In this document: piece after piece, positions 1-4,716 of the stretch
Layout of the letters: each line of letters begins with the position of its first letter
Position numbering within the stretch: the first letter of the stretch is position 1
Virus record (IMG/VR): IMGVR_UViG_2548876952_000002
Location: 1 to 4,716 of that record
Length of the DNA stretch: 4,716 bases
Source: a virus
Lineage: Duplodnaviria; Heunggongvirae; Uroviricota; Caudoviricetes
Strand: one strand, 5' to 3'
Notes under the pieces: generated by a model
Database searches by the model: none
Told to the model about the DNA's origin: nothing
What the model saw: only the letters and a program-made list of their open reading frames with translations
Position numbers and translations under genes: made by a program

Positions 1-330
1 AATGGCGAGGACGTCAGGCCGGTGGCCGACCGCGTGACCGTGCAGTCTGCCGCCATTGTTGAATATCAGATAAACGCCACGCTTTACCTTTACCCAGGTC
101 CCGAAAGCGAACCCATCCGCGCTGCTGCCGTGAAAAAACTGGAAGCGTATATCACGGCACAGCACCGGCTTGGGCGCGACATCCGTCTGTCTGCCATTTA
201 TGCCGCTTTGCATGTGGAAGGCGTGCAGCGTGTCGAGCTGGCCGCACCTCTGGCTGACATCGTGCTCAACAATACGCAGGCGTCTTTCTGTACTGAATAC
301 CGCGTCGTGACCGGAGGCTCGGATGAGTGA
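1..330 (+). CDS. Baseplate assembly protein J-like, C-terminal part (5' end lies outside the window)
   Basis: Frame 1 is open from nt 1 to the TGA at 328..330; the track ORF begins at an internal GTG (22) but the frame continues to the window edge. Stop overlaps the start of the next gene (ATG 323), as in tightly coupled phage tail operons. The J assignment comes from position immediately upstream of a gpI-like gene and general resemblance to P2 gpJ C-termini, recalled rather than searched. Confidence 0.55.
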   Translation, partial: NGEDVRPVADRVTVQSAAIVEYQINATLYLYPGPESEPIRAAAVKKLEAYITAQHRLGRDIRLSAIYAALHVEGVQRVELAAPLADIVLNNTQASFCTEYRVVTGGSDE

Positions 331-934
331 TTCGCGACTGCTGCCGACCGGCTCATCACCGCTTGAAGTCGCCGCCGCAAAAGCCTGTGCGGAAATTGAA
401 AAAACGCCGGTCAGTATTCGTGAGCTGTGGAACCCGGATACCTGTCCGGCAAATCTGCTGCCGTGGCTGGCGTGGTCATTTTCGGTCGACAGGTGGGATG
501 ATAAATGGCCGGAAGCGACCAAACGCGCTGTTATCCGCGATGCGTATTTCATTCACTGCCATAAGGGCACTATTGGTGCGATTCGCCGTGTGGTGGAGCC
601 GCTCGGCTATCTGATTGAGGTGAGGGAGTGGTGGCAACTCAACGAGGAGCCGGGGACGTTCCGTATCGTTGTTGGCGTGCTTGAGCAGGGTATTACCGAG
701 GAAATGTATCAGGAGCTGGAGCGCCTCGTTGCTGATGCAAAACCGGCAAGCCGCCATCTGACGGGACTGGCTATCAGTTTAAGTACAACCGGCAACATTT
801 TTGCCGGTGCGGGATGCTATCACGGTGACGCCCTGACGGTTTATCCCTACACCCAGGAGGCCATTATTGTCGGAGGGGATTATTTCCAGGCCTCGGCCAT
901 TCATTTAATTGATAACCTGAGAGTAAACGCATGA
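323..934 (+). CDS. Phage tail (baseplate) protein I, P2 gpI-like
   Basis: 203-aa ORF; GGAGG at 314..318 is 4 nt upstream of ATG 323. Start overlaps the upstream stop and its own stop (TGA 932..934) overlaps ATG 931 of the fibre gene (ATGA coupling). Position between J-like and H-like genes matches the P2 order J-I-H-G. Confidence 0.7.
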
Positions 935-2109
935 CAGTGAAATACTACGCCATTCTGACTAATCAGGGCGCAGCACGGCTGGCTAACGCGACGATGCTCG
1001 GCAGTAAGCTGAATCTGACGCAAATGGCCGTTGGTGATGCGAATGGTGTCTTGCCGACACCAGACCCGGCACAGACAAAACTGATTAACCAGAAACGCAT
1101 CGCGCCGCTGAATCTTCTGAGTGTTGACCCGAATAACCAGAGCCAGATTATTGCGGAGCAAATCATCCCTGAGAACGAGGGCGGATTCTGGATCCGTGAG
1201 ATTGGGCTTTATGATGATGAAGGCGTACTCATTGCGGTGGCGAACTGCCCGGAAACGTACAAACCGCAGTTGCAGGAAGGCAGCGGTCGTACCCAGACTA
1301 TCCGCATGATTCTGGTTGTCACGAATACCGAAGCCATCACGCTGAAAATCGACCCATCGGTGGTACTGGCGACCCGTAAATACGTGGATGATGAAGTCCT
1401 GGAATTAAAGCTGTATGTGGATGACCAGATGAGAAACCACATTGCCGCACAGGATCCTCATACCCAGTATGCGCAGAAACATAATCCGACATTTACCGGA
1501 GAACCAAAAGCGCCGACGCCTGCCGCAGGAAATAACACCACGCGGATTGCGACTACTGCGTTTGTTCAGGCCGCTATTACCGCTCTGATTAACGGTGCGC
1601 CAGCCACACTGGACACACTGAAAGAAATTGCCGCGGCCATTAACAATGACCCGAAATTCAGCACCACCATTAACAATGCGCTGTCAGGCAAGCAGCCACT
1701 GGATGAGACGCTGACTCATTTGAGTGGAAAGGATGTTGCCGGCCTTCTCGCATACCTTGGTTTGGGAGAAGCGGCTAAAAGGAATGTAGGGACAGGTGCG
1801 AATCAGCTACCTGATATGGGTAGTTTTATGCTTTCTGCTTCAGTTCCTGGATATCAAAAATTGCCATCCGGTTTAATTATTCAATGGGGGCCAATTGATG
1901 TTCCGCTGACGTCTCAGGACACAGTAACCTATTTTCCGATTGCATTTCCGAACAGATGTCTGCGGGTATTTGCGACTCAGGATTACACTCCCGGCAGTGC
2001 AAATGTTGGCTATATAGCTTGTGCCGGTTATAACCAGGACCCAGTGAAATTTATTTCCAGAGCAGGCGTACCCGGTATCGGTGCTTCATTTTTCGCATTA
2101 GGGTGTTAA
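931..2109 (+). CDS. Tail fibre protein (P2 gpH / Mu S-like): constant N-terminal part (931..1758) fused to variable tip cassette A (1759..2109)
   Basis: 392-aa ORF. The N-terminus ([20 protein letters not shown]...MAVGD...[29 protein letters not shown]...EGSGRTQT) has the conserved pattern of P2 H-family fibre N-termini, and the region around [12 protein letters not shown]...[30 protein letters not shown] is typical of the fibre shaft. The crossover site at 1745..1770 lies inside the coding sequence at the YLGLGE motif. Confidence 0.85.
1745..1770. repeat. Left 26-bp invertase crossover site (hix/gix/cix/pix-like), inside the fibre gene
   Basis: TTCTCGCATACC-TT-GGTTTGGGAGAA: two 12-bp half-sites in imperfect inverted symmetry around a central TT. 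The inner half plus core (1757..1771) is a perfect inverted repeat of 3644..3658. Confidence 0.8.
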
Positions 2110-2135
2110 TTTCTTTTAACTATATGGAGTGAAAA

Positions 2136-2576
2136 ATGAATTACATATATTCCGCGACTACAAACTCTTTCTATCCGCTGGAGATGAAAGAGGATTACAC
2201 GCAAGCTGACTCATGGCCAGATGATGCTGTTGAAGTTGATGAGCAAGTGTATATTGAGTTTTCCGGATTACCGCCGAAAGGAAAAATCCGTATCGCTGGA
2301 GAAAATGGTTTTCCTGCATGGTCTGAAATTCCACCACCAACACATGAGGAACAGATTGCTGCAGCCGAACTGAAAAAGCAGCAATTGATTAATCAGGCCA
2401 ACGATTATATGAACAGTAAACAATGGGCTGGTAAAGCGGCTATTGGTCGTCTGAAAGGTGAGGAACTGGCGCAATATAATTTATGGCTGGATTATCTGGA
2501 TGCACTGGAACTGGTTGATTCCTCCAGTGCGCCAGATATTGAATGGCCTACGCCTCCGGCAGTTCAGGCCAGATGA
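2136..2576 (+). CDS. Tail-fibre assembly chaperone A (P2 gpG / Mu U / Tfa family), partner of tip cassette A
   Basis: 146-aa ORF with GGAG at 2126..2129 and ATG at 2136, 26 nt after the fibre stop. C-terminus ...LDYLDALELVDSSSAPDIEWPTPPAVQAR carries the conserved Tfa C-terminal motif (cf. P2 gpG ending ...NPEWPEMPQ). Confidence 0.8.
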   Translation: MNYIYSATTNSFYPLEMKEDYTQADSWPDDAVEVDEQVYIEFSGLPPKGKIRIAGENGFPAWSEIPPPTHEEQIAAAELKKQQLINQANDYMNSKQWAGKAAIGRLKGEELAQYNLWLDYLDALELVDSSSAPDIEWPTPPAVQAR

Positions 2577-3150
2577 CATCCGGCGCGGTGCTGGTATCTG
2601 TTGCCGTCACCGCGTCAATGTAATCCAGCGCAGCGTTAAGTCGGGCGGTTTCTGCCTGCGTCAGATTCCGTCCGGCCTGCAATTTCAGCTGAATCAGACC
2701 GATGGAAACCATTGCTGCATCAATCAGTGACTGGCGCTGTGCTTCTGCCGCGTCTACTGCGGCGTGATGCTGTGCCTCAGTATCGGTCACCCATTTCTCA
2801 CCATCCCATTTATCGTATGGCGTTAATGGGGCGATAGTGGTTGTATTTTCGGGGTAATCACCCGGAGTTGTGATTTCTTTGGCGTCTCCCGTTTCGGTGT
2901 TATAGACGATTTCTCCGCGATGGTCTGGCACATATTCCCATGAGTTTAAATCCGCAGAGCGGCAGATGGCATAACCAGCTTTATATGTTCCTGGTGCATC
3001 TAAACAGGAACATGCCGGAATACCGACACCAACAGCAAGATATTCAGTTGATGTGGAAATATATTCTCGTGTTTCACCATTATAATTATAGACAGTAATA
3101 TCCCCCGCCTTCGTGGCAATAAACTCGCTATTTAATACGGCATTATCCAT
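2548..3150 (-). CDS. Tail-fibre assembly chaperone B (Tfa / U'-type), partner of tip cassette B
   Basis: 200-aa minus-strand ORF with a GAGGG Shine-Dalgarno about 8 nt upstream of the ATG (complement of 3148..3150). C-terminus ...LDYIDAVTATDTSTAPDVIWPELPEA has the same conserved Tfa motif as chaperone A, while the N-terminal domain is unrelated. Its ATG overlaps the TAA stop of the upstream minus-strand fibre cassette by 1 nt. Confidence 0.8.
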   Translation of the reverse strand: MDNAVLNSEFIATKAGDITVYNYNGETREYISTSTEYLAVGVGIPACSCLDAPGTYKAGYAICRSADLNSWEYVPDHRGEIVYNTETGDAKEITTPGDYPENTTTIAPLTPYDKWDGEKWVTDTEAQHHAAVDAAEAQRQSLIDAAMVSIGLIQLKLQAGRNLTQAETARLNAALDYIDAVTATDTSTAPDVIWPELPEA

Positions 3151-3698
3151 TATGCAGCCCTCACGATGTAATTAAATGAAAGGTTACGAGGGCGCATTGA
3201 TATCCATGCCCCGGTAAAATTATCCTCCGCTGTCCTTTGAGTACCCGTTATGGAGTTATCTGCTGATGCAGGAACATAATCGCTATTATTTCCTGCTTTA
3301 GGATTAGCTGGGTTTCCAACAGTTATAACAGAATCAGCAGTAGCAAAAGCGATACCTACTTTGACATTAGTATTCAGATCGTAACCGTAATAATCCTGCA
3401 AAGCTGTACGAATAAATGTTGCAGCCTGACCACTTAGCAATGAACGCCCCGTATCAATCCCTCTAGAATCATCCCAGCCACGAATAAACTCACCACGTAA
3501 ATCAGGCAATTTATTTGTCGGGTAAGCCTTTGCCAGTTCCGGGTATTCTTCAGCAGAAAAAGCTGCTCCGTTGCATTTCAGCCAGCCTGTTGGAGGTGTC
3601 TCTGAAGGCCACGGAACAGGTGCACCAACAGGTAATGCTGAACCTTCTCCCAAACCAACGTTTATGAAAATGCAGAGATAACGGGCAACTGGCATCAT
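3150..3698 (-). CDS. Alternative tail-fibre C-terminal cassette B (S'v-type, silent in this orientation); functional part is 3150..3656, and the track ORF's first 14 codons (MMPVARYLCIFINV) are probably artefactual
   Basis: From the crossover site inward the minus-strand frame reads GLGEGSALPVGAPVPWPSETPPTGWLKCNGAAFSAEEYPELAKAYPTNKLPDLRGEFIRGWDDSRGIDTGRSLLSGQ..., a collar-type C-terminal fibre domain (LPDLRGEFIRGWDD is the classic motif). The ORF start lies outside the invertible segment and has no convincing RBS; the cassette is in frame with the constant fibre part after inversion. Confidence 0.75.
   Translation of the reverse strand: MMPVARYLCIFINVGLGEGSALPVGAPVPWPSETPPTGWLKCNGAAFSAEEYPELAKAYPTNKLPDLRGEFIRGWDDSRGIDTGRSLLSGQAATFIRTALQDYYGYDLNTNVKVGIAFATADSVITVGNPANPKAGNNSDYVPASADNSITGTQRTAEDNFTGAWISMRPRNLSFNYIVRAA
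3645..3670. repeat. Right 26-bp invertase crossover site (hix/gix/cix/pix-like)
   Basis: TTCTCCCAAACC-AA-CGTTTATGAAAA. The inner half plus core is the exact reverse complement of 1757..1770; the outer half is degenerate (7 of 12 matches to the left outer half). Located 55 nt upstream of the invertase start codon. Confidence 0.8.
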
Positions 3699-3725
3699 CT
3701 CCGGTTTTTATTCAGGGGGATGCTC

Positions 3726-4319
3726 ATGCTTATTGGCTATGTACGCGTGTCAACAAATGACCAGAACACGGAATTGCAGCGTAACGCGCTGGAGTGCGCA
3801 GGATGCGAGCGGATTTTTGAGGATAAAATCAGCGGCACGAAGTCCGACAGACCGGGACTGAAAAAAATGCTCAGAACATTATCAGCAGGTGACACTCTGG
3901 TAGTCTGGAAGCTGGACAGGCTGGGGCGTAGTATGCGGCATCTGGTCATTCTGGTTGAGGAGCTGCGCGAACGCGGCATTAATTTTCGCAGCCTGACGGA
4001 TGCCATTGATACCAGCACGCCGATGGGGCGTTTTTTCTTTCATGTGATGGGTGCCCTGGCTGAAATGGAACGAGAACTCATTGTCGAGCGGACACGCGCC
4101 GGACTGGAAGCAGCCAGAGCCAAAGGTCGTATTGGTGGCAGACGTCCGAAACTCACCGCGAGTGAGTGGGAGCAGGTCGGACGGTTGCTGGCTGCGGGGG
4201 AATCTCGTCAACGTGTGGCGCTGATTTTTGATATTGGCCTGTCCACGCTCTATAAAAAATTCCCCTCATCAGCGACAAAGAATAAATTGTGTCATCCCTT
4301 AGCCAACCGGGACAAATAG
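3726..4319 (+). CDS. pin: Serine DNA invertase, Gin/Pin/Cin/Hin family (small serine recombinase, resolvase/invertase fold)
   Basis: Translation MLIGYVRVSTNDQNTELQRNALECAGCERIFEDKISGTKSDRPGLKKMLRTLSAGDTLVVWKLDRLGRSMRHLV...INFRSLTDAIDTSTPMGRFFFHVMGALAEMERELIVERTRAGLEAARAKGRIGGRRPKLT...STLYKKF is near-identical in motif content to Gin, Cin and especially Pin: catalytic Ser in GYVRVSTNDQ (codon 3750..3752), the VVWKLDRLGRS and GRFFFHVMGALAEMERELI blocks, and a C-terminal HTH. The track ORF starts at ATG 3720 (MLML...), but ATG 3726 gives the canonical MLIGY N-terminus and 6-nt spacing from AGGGGGA (3714..3720). Gene symbol is by family resemblance only. Confidence 0.93.
   Translation: MLIGYVRVSTNDQNTELQRNALECAGCERIFEDKISGTKSDRPGLKKMLRTLSAGDTLVVWKLDRLGRSMRHLVILVEELRERGINFRSLTDAIDTSTPMGRFFFHVMGALAEMERELIVERTRAGLEAARAKGRIGGRRPKLTASEWEQVGRLLAAGESRQRVALIFDIGLSTLYKKFPSSATKNKLCHPLANRDK
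3819..3870. promoter_or_regulatory. Candidate Fis-dependent recombinational enhancer (two putative Fis sites) inside the 5' part of the invertase gene
   Basis: Two 15-mers fit the degenerate Fis pattern G-N13-C with an AT-rich centre: GAGGATAAAATCAGC (3819..3833) and GACTGAAAAAAATGC (3856..3870). In Hin/Gin/Cin systems the enhancer lies within the first ~150-200 bp of the invertase coding region. Exact positions here are pattern-matching by eye; the centre-to-centre spacing I measure (~37 bp) is shorter than the ~48 bp I recall for hin, so this is uncertain. Confidence 0.3.
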
Positions 4320-4378
4320 CCTGACATCTCCGGCACAACTGAAAATATCACTCACCCATTAACCACGGAGTTAAACGG

Positions 4379-4716
4379 ATGAGTGACTATCATCACGGCG
4401 TGCAGGTGCTGGAGATTAACGACGGCACCCGTGTCATTTCCACCGTATCCACTGCCATTGTCGGCATGGTCTGCACGGCCAGCGATGCGGATGCGGAAAC
4501 CTTCCCCCTCAATAAACCGGTGCTGATTACCAATGTGCAGAGTGCAATTGCAAAGGCCGGTAAAAAAGGCACGCTGGCGGCATCGTTGCAGGCCATCGCC
4601 GACCAGTCAAAACCGGTCACCGTTGTCGTACGTGTGGAAGACGGCACCGGCGACGACGAGGAAACGAAACTCGCGCAGACCGTTTCCAATATCATCGGCA
4701 CCACCGACGAAAACGG
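4379..4716 (+). CDS. Tail sheath protein FI (P2 gpFI-like), N-terminal part (3' end lies outside the window)
   Basis: GGAG at 4367..4370 is 8 nt upstream of ATG 4379, and the frame is open to the window end (112 codons). Translation [61 protein letters not shown]... matches the conserved N-terminus of P2-type contractile tail sheath proteins. It is absent from the ORF track only because no stop falls inside the window. Confidence 0.85.

Follow-up and report, generated by a model that had tools for sequence, protein, structure and literature searches.

A probable Din-family invertible tail-fibre switch in a P2-like prophage, with a crossover site in the reading frame of the fibre gene

The fibre gene in the stretch of DNA analysed here contains a sequence resembling the crossover site of a DNA invertase. 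This raises the question of how a single sequence can serve both as a site of recombination and as part of a protein, and whether the fibre reading frame remains intact in both orientations of the DNA. The window (i.e. the whole stretch that was analysed, 4716 nt in length) comprises the tail-fibre region of a prophage of the P2-like group (Peduoviridae), and the features that bear on the question are collected in Table 1. We consider that the window contains a Din-family invertible tail-fibre switch of the kind found in the Mu G, P1 C and e14 P segments, and place the probability of this reading at about 93%. The type of switch is already known and is of textbook design, and both isomers and both fibre proteins are already present in RefSeq.

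Table 1. Positions of genes, gene parts and recombination elements in the window
Feature	Position	Strand	Remarks
Baseplate J gene, 3′ end	22-330	+	RefSeq name 'baseplate assembly protein' at near-identical loci
P2 gpI-type tail protein	323-934	+	PF09684 Tail_P2_I, E=2.9e-56
Whole fibre gene, current orientation	931-2109	+	392 codons; PF12571 N-terminal fibre domain, Gp53-like C-terminal domain
Constant fibre part Sc, codons 1-276, ending in the left-site core	931-1758	+	
Left crossover site	1745-1770		Outer half TTCTCGCATACC, core TT (1757-1758), inner half GGTTTGGGAGAA; encodes (L)LAY-L-GLGE
Variable fibre end Sv, now expressed, 116 aa plus stop	1759-2109	+	PF21882 Gp53-like_C
Tail-fibre assembly chaperone for Sv	2136-2576	+	PF02413 Caudo_TAP, E=2e-37
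Tail-fibre assembly chaperone for Sv′ (TfaE-like)	2548-3150	-	PF02413, E=3e-31
Silent alternative fibre end Sv′, StfE-like, 168 aa plus stop	3150-3656	-	PF07484 Collar domain
Right crossover site	3645-3670		Inner half TTCTCCCAAACC, core AA (3657-3658), outer half CGTTTATGAAAA
Short leader from ATG 3698, outside the segment	3657-3698	-	MMPVARYLCIFINV; predicted ORF
Din-family serine DNA invertase, 197 aa	3726-4319	+	PF00239 (Resolvase) plus PF02796 (HTH_7)
Putative recombinational enhancer	3744-3815	+	Homology to the annotated enhancer inside P1 cin, same position in the gene
Tail sheath FI gene, 5′ part	4379-4716	+	PF22671; 'phage tail sheath' in RefSeq and contigs

The arrangement of genes is that of P2. 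In five contigs around the identical fibre protein the order is lysis genes LysA/C, R, S, V, W, J, I, H, G, invertase, FI and FII, and Baseplate_J Pfam domains are found on contigs that encode this fibre. The interval between G and FI, which in P2 is occupied by fun(Z), contains an inverted cassette together with the invertase in the window. The constant 5′ part of the fibre gene (Sc), in which the PF12571 N-terminal domain extends over residues 1-150, lies outside the segment that is bounded by the crossover sites. The two 3′ ends (Sv and Sv′) lie inside it in opposite orientations, and each is followed by its own Caudo_TAP gene. Sequence searching of the PDB indicates that Sv is related to the feet of R-type pyocin fibres. 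The Sv′ end as it stands is promoterless, and the gene for its chaperone is called tfaE at RefSeq loci. The two chaperone genes overlap tail-to-tail by 29 nt.

The two 26-bp sites are in inverted orientation, each comprising two imperfectly symmetric 12-bp half-sites that flank a 2-bp core, and the core dinucleotides are identical when read inverted (TT on the left, AA on the right). The right site lies ~55 nt upstream of the invertase gene. The inner halves of the two sites are exact reverse complements of each other, and the inverted repeat common to both sites is exact over 14-15 nt (TTGGTTTGGGAGAA[G]); it lies at the core of the longest such repeat that the window contains. On comparison with the Din half-site pattern TTNTCNNAAACC each site matches at 17 of the 18 specified positions, and the same scan revealed no third site in the window, i.e. 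nothing else matching at 13 or more of the 18. The left site has a dyad symmetry of 10/12 despite being coding sequence. Symmetry is weak in the right site's outer half, where AAACG stands next to the core in place of AAACC (dyad 8/12); the same outer half is functional in e14. By chance ~0.04 exact 14-nt inverted pairs would be expected per 4.7 kb, and from shuffled sequences (n = 2000) the expected number of sites per window was 0.001 at a threshold of at least 15/18 and 0 at 17/18 or above, the latter ruling out a chance inverted repeat. A multi-site shufflon was also considered, and is ruled out by the presence of only two sites in the window.

The left site lies inside the fibre open reading frame that begins at ATG 931, with the coordinates and sequence given in the initial annotation. 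The difference between 1756 and 931 is divisible by three, and therefore the CTT at 1756-1758 is Leu276; this is the leucine codon that the core TT had been said to complete. It had further been claimed that the inner half-site encodes Gly-Leu-Gly-Glu whichever way the segment lies, and this is indeed the case. In the frame of the constant part the codons of either inner half-site are GGT TTG GGA GAA, so that the 276 constant codons always join either end in frame. In the current orientation the fibre reading frame is open over 392 aa. Inversion of 1759-3656 in silico, followed by translation from ATG 931, generates an open reading frame of 444 aa with neither a frameshift nor a stop codon at the junction, in agreement with the manual translation reported previously.

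The inverted form of the locus occurs naturally. A 600-nt query spanning the in-silico inverted junction was matched end to end, at 99.5%, in E. coli CUPF09. The prophage of this strain (L001) aligns with the window in three blocks, corresponding to positions 1-1771 forward, 1754-3661 reversed and 3644-4716 forward, with ~98% identity and no indels; Sc is thus collinear with the inverted isomer as far as position 1771. A three-block alignment lacking indels indicates a clean inversion with breakpoints inside the repeat, and these fall within 1754-1771 and 3644-3661. The annotated RefSeq fibre protein of CUPF09 is identical to the in-silico fusion at 444 of 444 residues. The window's own orientation is present in strain EFF60 (L002) and in five draft contigs (L075-L079). 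Taking alignments at 80% coverage or more, uninterrupted matches to the junction in complete E. coli genomes comprised 270 with Sc-Sv′ (inverted) and 28 with Sc-Sv (current). Comparison between strains therefore reveals the segment in both orientations, in prophages that are ~98% identical. We note that of 14 truncated draft loci, 11 have their contig end within the inner half-site on the proximal side, a pattern that assembly would be expected to produce from mixed orientations or repeated sites. As far as a single static sequence can tell, this particular copy probably flips.

The invertase can be aligned without gaps to PinE of e14, Gin of Mu and Cin of P1, with identities of 86%, 80% and 78% respectively, and its match in the PDB is Gin (3uj3, E=3e-94). 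The N-terminus, MLIGYVRVST, is catalytic, with Ser9 lying in YVRVST, and the HTH is located at the C-terminus. Staggered 2-bp cleavage, subunit rotation and dependence on Fis are all established for Gin and Hin. By the same mechanism, dimers of the invertase (3726-4319) would bind to the two inverted 26-bp sites, and the dimer-bound sites would synapse at a Fis-bound enhancer. Staggered cuts of 2 bp at the cores, a 180° rotation of subunits and religation would then leave 1759-3656 flipped. Sc would be joined either to Sv, giving a fibre of 392 aa with a Gp53-like foot, or to Sv′, giving one of 444 aa with a collar domain and a resemblance to StfE.

The putative enhancer at 3744-3815 has a nucleotide identity of 78% to P1 and 74% to Mu. 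When identity at third codon positions in 3744-3815 was compared with that in the rest of the invertase gene, using cin, gin and pinE, no consistent excess was observed. By analogy with the related systems, flipping of this copy may depend on Fis and the putative enhancer. A simple scan of 2050-4420 found no sigma-70-like promoter for either the invertase or the minus-strand leader ORF, and promoter-like matches in this region were fewer than in shuffled sequences. The virion fibre would be made only from the cassette that faces the late operon, so that a population of lysogens would yield particles of two host ranges. The C-terminal domains of the two ends, Gp53-like_C and Collar, are unrelated, which suggests that the ends may confer different host ranges.

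How general is the coupling between site and frame? Relatives of the invertase were surveyed using one genome per species, giving 67 loci from many genera of Enterobacterales. In 36 distinct loci the distal site lies within an ORF that extends without a stop for 85 codons or more to either side of it, and it is always in the same frame, encoding x-L-x-(N/Y)-L-G-L-G-(E/D). The proximal site is ~80 nt upstream of the invertase start in the surveyed loci, and there a long ORF opens inward only. The cores of paired sites covary across genera, TT being found with AA or TC with GA. In statistics that are inflated by the ascertainment of sites with a consensus scan and by the shared ancestry of the loci, for which reason p-values are nominal only, the codon for Gly+1 is GGT in 35/35 (compared with a background of 31% in the same ORFs), that for Leu+2 is TTG or TTA in 32/33 (background 27%) and that for Asn-1 is AAC in 29/30 (background 46%). 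The third base is T in all 36 loci at codon -4, where the residue varies between A, V, L, F, S, I and T, and it is A in all 36 at codon -2, where the residue varies between A, K, Q, S, E and T.

Sites were also sought without using the consensus, by taking the longest exact inverted repeat between the 140 nt upstream of the invertase and the DNA further upstream, and then the best dyad. This identified the same sites as the scan in ~15 loci. Elsewhere it failed, either because the exact repeat was shorter than 11 nt or because a longer repeat, unrelated or internal to a cassette, was preferred. Some of the relatives have three sites, an example being L042.

The initial annotation proposed that reading frame and site symmetry are constrained together, and this is supported by the fixed choice of codons and by the occurrence of the same frame at 36 distinct loci. 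Since codon choice is fixed even where the amino acid changes, it is the DNA site that appears to be conserved. This suggests that the site is the primary constraint, and that the junction peptide is conserved mainly as its translation. The junction falls between Pfam domains, a few residues ahead of the receptor-binding modules, and the similarity of the variable ends to structures in the PDB begins 2-10 residues beyond it. No solved homologue that confidently spans the junction was found by PDB sequence search, and the alignment with pyocin fibres has low posterior support where it crosses this point. From its position, the description of the junction peptide as a linker seems reasonable.

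The same data bear on other explanations of the locus. One would be that L-G-L-G-E serves the fibre protein as a structural hinge and has been selected as such, the symmetry of the DNA being secondary. Positions 0, +1 and +2 almost always hold L, G and L, and the peptide persists in gene H of P2, which is not invertible. Yet the choice between synonymous codons is fixed (GGT 35/35, TTR 32/33, AAC 29/30), codons -4 and -2 change the residue while keeping the base that the half-site needs, and the noncoding outer half of the right site has the same half-site pattern. Moreover, in P2 H, where there is no invertase, the half-site has drifted synonymously, with TAT in place of TAC. Selection for a hinge therefore seems to us a rather improbable account. 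P2 H also provides an argument that the window could contain a relic, once invertible and now frozen, with the in-frame alternative left over. Since gpH retains a gix-like sequence (VIEYLGLQE) in the absence of a partner site or an invertase, the motif can evidently outlive the switch. In the window, however, both sites are present and their cores are identical, the invertase ORF is intact, and each of the two cassettes is complete and has its chaperone; the dyad of its left site is 10/12 compared with 6/12 in the P2 relic, and ~98% identical prophages are known in both orientations. A frozen relic is thus very unlikely. It is scarcely credible that the isomers arise by RecA-dependent homologous recombination between short inverted repeats instead of by site-specific exchange. 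The repeats are exact, but over just 14-15 nt, which is well under the usual minimum for efficient exchange by RecA; in addition a dedicated invertase that is 80-86% identical to proven invertases adjoins the segment, and the covariation of paired cores across genera is hard to reconcile with a process of this kind.

A further possibility concerns the minus strand. An ORF that starts at ATG 3698 runs through the right site without loss of frame whichever way the segment lies, with a length of 182 aa now and 130 aa after inversion, and both forms are annotated as genes in RefSeq (L001 and L002). It is the counterpart of StfE/StfE2 of e14, and its leader resembles that of e14 StfE. The StfE2 protein has been reported to block adsorption of T2 (PMC12529663). 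The switch might then mainly serve the host, as reported for e14 with PinQ, a free receptor-binding protein blocking the adsorption of other phages. We regard this as quite improbable for the window. The GGAG sequence abuts ATG 3698, which is poor spacing, and the scan described above found no promoter; in many related loci there is a stop codon 1-9 codons upstream of the proximal core, so that the leader ORF is not general. The element is, moreover, part of an apparently complete P2-like tail module, and for this reason a role in the host range of the virion is the simplest reading. In a combined scheme, a single flip would exchange the C-terminus of the virion fibre and, at the same time, that of a free receptor-binding protein with a short leader, the latter protein being host-protective and phase-variable. 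This too is unlikely. If it were true, the 'silent' cassette of a P2-like prophage would be a phase-variable superinfection shield for its host.

Interpreted as an invertible fibre switch, the locus is a clean example of one 26-bp sequence with two uses: it is the site of a recombinase and also encodes the junction of a protein. There are practical consequences. Annotations routinely list a silent fibre half as a 'phage tail protein' gene in its own right, and draft assemblies are prone to break at the site. The in-frame junction also marks a point at which receptor-binding modules could be swapped in the engineering of P2-type phages or tailocins.

The window can be compared with the known invertible fibre genes at the level of the junction itself. 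Alignment of the fibres, as had been proposed, places the boundary between constant and variable parts at the same L-GL-x-E motif and in the same frame in Mu S, P1 S and e14 StfP. In all of these and in the window the boundary is located at the annotated or repeat-defined crossover point, and the peptides there are LAYLGLGE (window), IQNLGLQE (Mu), IQYLGLRE (P1) and LENLGLGE (e14). The corresponding sites are TTATCCAAAACC TC GGTTTACAGGAA in Mu (gixL, encoding FIQN-L-GLQE-TVN), TTATCCAATACC TT GGTTTAAGAGAA in P1 (cixR, encoding VIQY-L-GLRE-LGT) and CTCTCGAAAACC TT GGTTTGGGAGAA in e14 (the left site, pixL, encoding LEN-L-GLGE-GAK).

The Mu G segment with Gin has the same gene order as the window, i.e. 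Sc / Sv U - U′ Sv′ / invertase, and its fibre gene likewise contains, in the same frame, a 26-bp site with a 2-bp core. It differs in having TC rather than TT as the core, in its inner half-site (GGTTTACAGGAA) and in the 3-kb length of the segment, and neither its variable ends nor its constant part are related in sequence to those of the window. The P1 C segment with Cin (to which Min of p15B is related) shares with the window the core TT and the boundary motif, and has its enhancer in the 5′ end of the invertase gene. It differs in that 0.6-kb inverted repeats lie inside a 4.2-kb segment, and cin is on the other side relative to S. The Min system of p15B has six sites compared with two in the window, and the R64 shufflon uses a tyrosine recombinase, where the enzyme of the window is a serine recombinase.

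The P segment of e14, a cryptic prophage of E. coli K-12, has the organization stfP/tfaP - tfaE/stfE - pinE. Its right site is identical to that of the window at 26/26 positions, and the two systems share the inner repeat TTGGTTTGGGAGAA. Between the left sites the outer half alone differs (CTCTCGAAAACC compared with TTCTCGCATACC), and the two have in common the junction peptide (N/Y)-L-GLGE. The similarity extends into the cassette, where Sv′ and its chaperone gene have ~85% nucleotide identity to stfE and ~87% to tfaE. Inversion of the e14 segment at TTGGTTTGGGAGAAGG / CCTTCTCCCAAACCAA has been observed by whole-genome sequencing, and generates chimeric stf genes (PMC12529663). By contrast, the Gp53-like foot (Sv) and chaperone of the window are unrelated to e14 stfP. 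In e14, a defective lambdoid remnant, the constant part is short, with 97 codons open upstream of the site. The window has a constant part of 276 codons of the P2 gpH type, in an apparently complete P2-like tail operon.

P2-like phages with an invertible fibre end, such as pro483 and the prophages of EPEC E2348/69, belong to the same family and have the same type of invertase, and the switch is positioned between H/G and FI as it is in the window. Phage pro483 aligns with 84% of the window, the identity being 94%. The pairs of cassettes in pro483 and in the P2-like elements of EPEC E2348/69 differ from that of the window, and one EPEC prophage has three repeats in a shufflon-like arrangement. 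Each of e14, Mu and two EPEC P2-like prophages has been detected in culture in both orientations (PMC4272514). Gene H of P2 itself is not invertible, and its N-terminus is 42% identical to the fibre of the window. It has a gix-like sequence at the homologous position that is 23/26 identical to Mu gixL and encodes VIEY-L-GLQE, placed where similarity to the Mu and P1 fibres begins. P2 has neither an invertase nor a partner site, its dyad is eroded to 6/12 and the half-site has drifted at the synonymous position noted above.

The right crossover site is crossed in frame by a minus-strand open reading frame (see table below) whose ATG, directly abutted by GGAG, lies outside the invertible segment. 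The predicted product is 182 aa in the present orientation and would be 130 aa following inversion; both forms are found as CDS in RefSeq, in related prophages. Within the segment the convergent tail-fibre assembly genes have a 29-nt tail-to-tail overlap (window 2548-2576), while the stop codon of Sv′, the silent fibre end, and the start of its chaperone gene tfa′ share the sequence TAATG (window 3148-3152). The latter overlap suggests translational coupling of the two genes.

Coordinates of the reading frame and crossover sites
Feature	Position	Strand	Sequence
Minus-strand ORF	window 3657-3698, on to 3150	-	ATG 3698, leader MMPVARYLCIFINV
Crossover sites, L042	2560, 4811, 5910	+, -, -	
gix-like site, phage P2 gene H	L074 1124-1149 = NC_001895 13857-13882		TTATCGAATATC TC GGTTTACAGGAA

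Some related loci contain at least three crossover sites, among them L042 (Pantoea allii), L009, L043 and L064. The junction peptide LGLxE is read in frame at every one of these sites, and these loci are therefore multi-cassette, shufflon-like versions of the switch in the window.

Fourteen of the 67 invertase loci, all from draft genomes (L005, L010, L012, L013, L015, L026, L029-L032, L041, L044, L047 and L048), end 64-131 nt upstream of the invertase. As their first 20-60 nt show, 11 of these contigs break off within the proximal crossover site, in its inner half (e.g. ...AAACCAACGTTT), a pattern characteristic of assembly breaks at a flipping or repeated site. Two invertase relatives (72-93% identity), L043, from a MAG that bears the name Mobilitalea sp., and L062, a 228-nt contig of Acinetobacter idrijaensis, have enterobacterial-type sites on very short contigs with unrelated taxon labels; their placement probably reflects contamination or mis-binning.

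The gix-like site of P2 gene H encodes the peptide VIEYLGLQE, and is identical to Mu gixL at 23 of 26 positions. Its dyad is down to 6/12, and no partner site was found within P2 12734-22000. It is a relic in a non-invertible gene.

The counterpart of the minus-strand ORF in the cryptic prophage e14 is StfE/StfE2, for which a block of T2 adsorption has been reported (PMC12529663). Comparison of window 2110-3725 with P2 (L073 1276-3652) shows that the interval between the fibre chaperone and sheath genes is occupied by fun(Z) in P2, but by the inverted cassette and invertase in the window, so that this interval is a single variable slot carrying different cargo.
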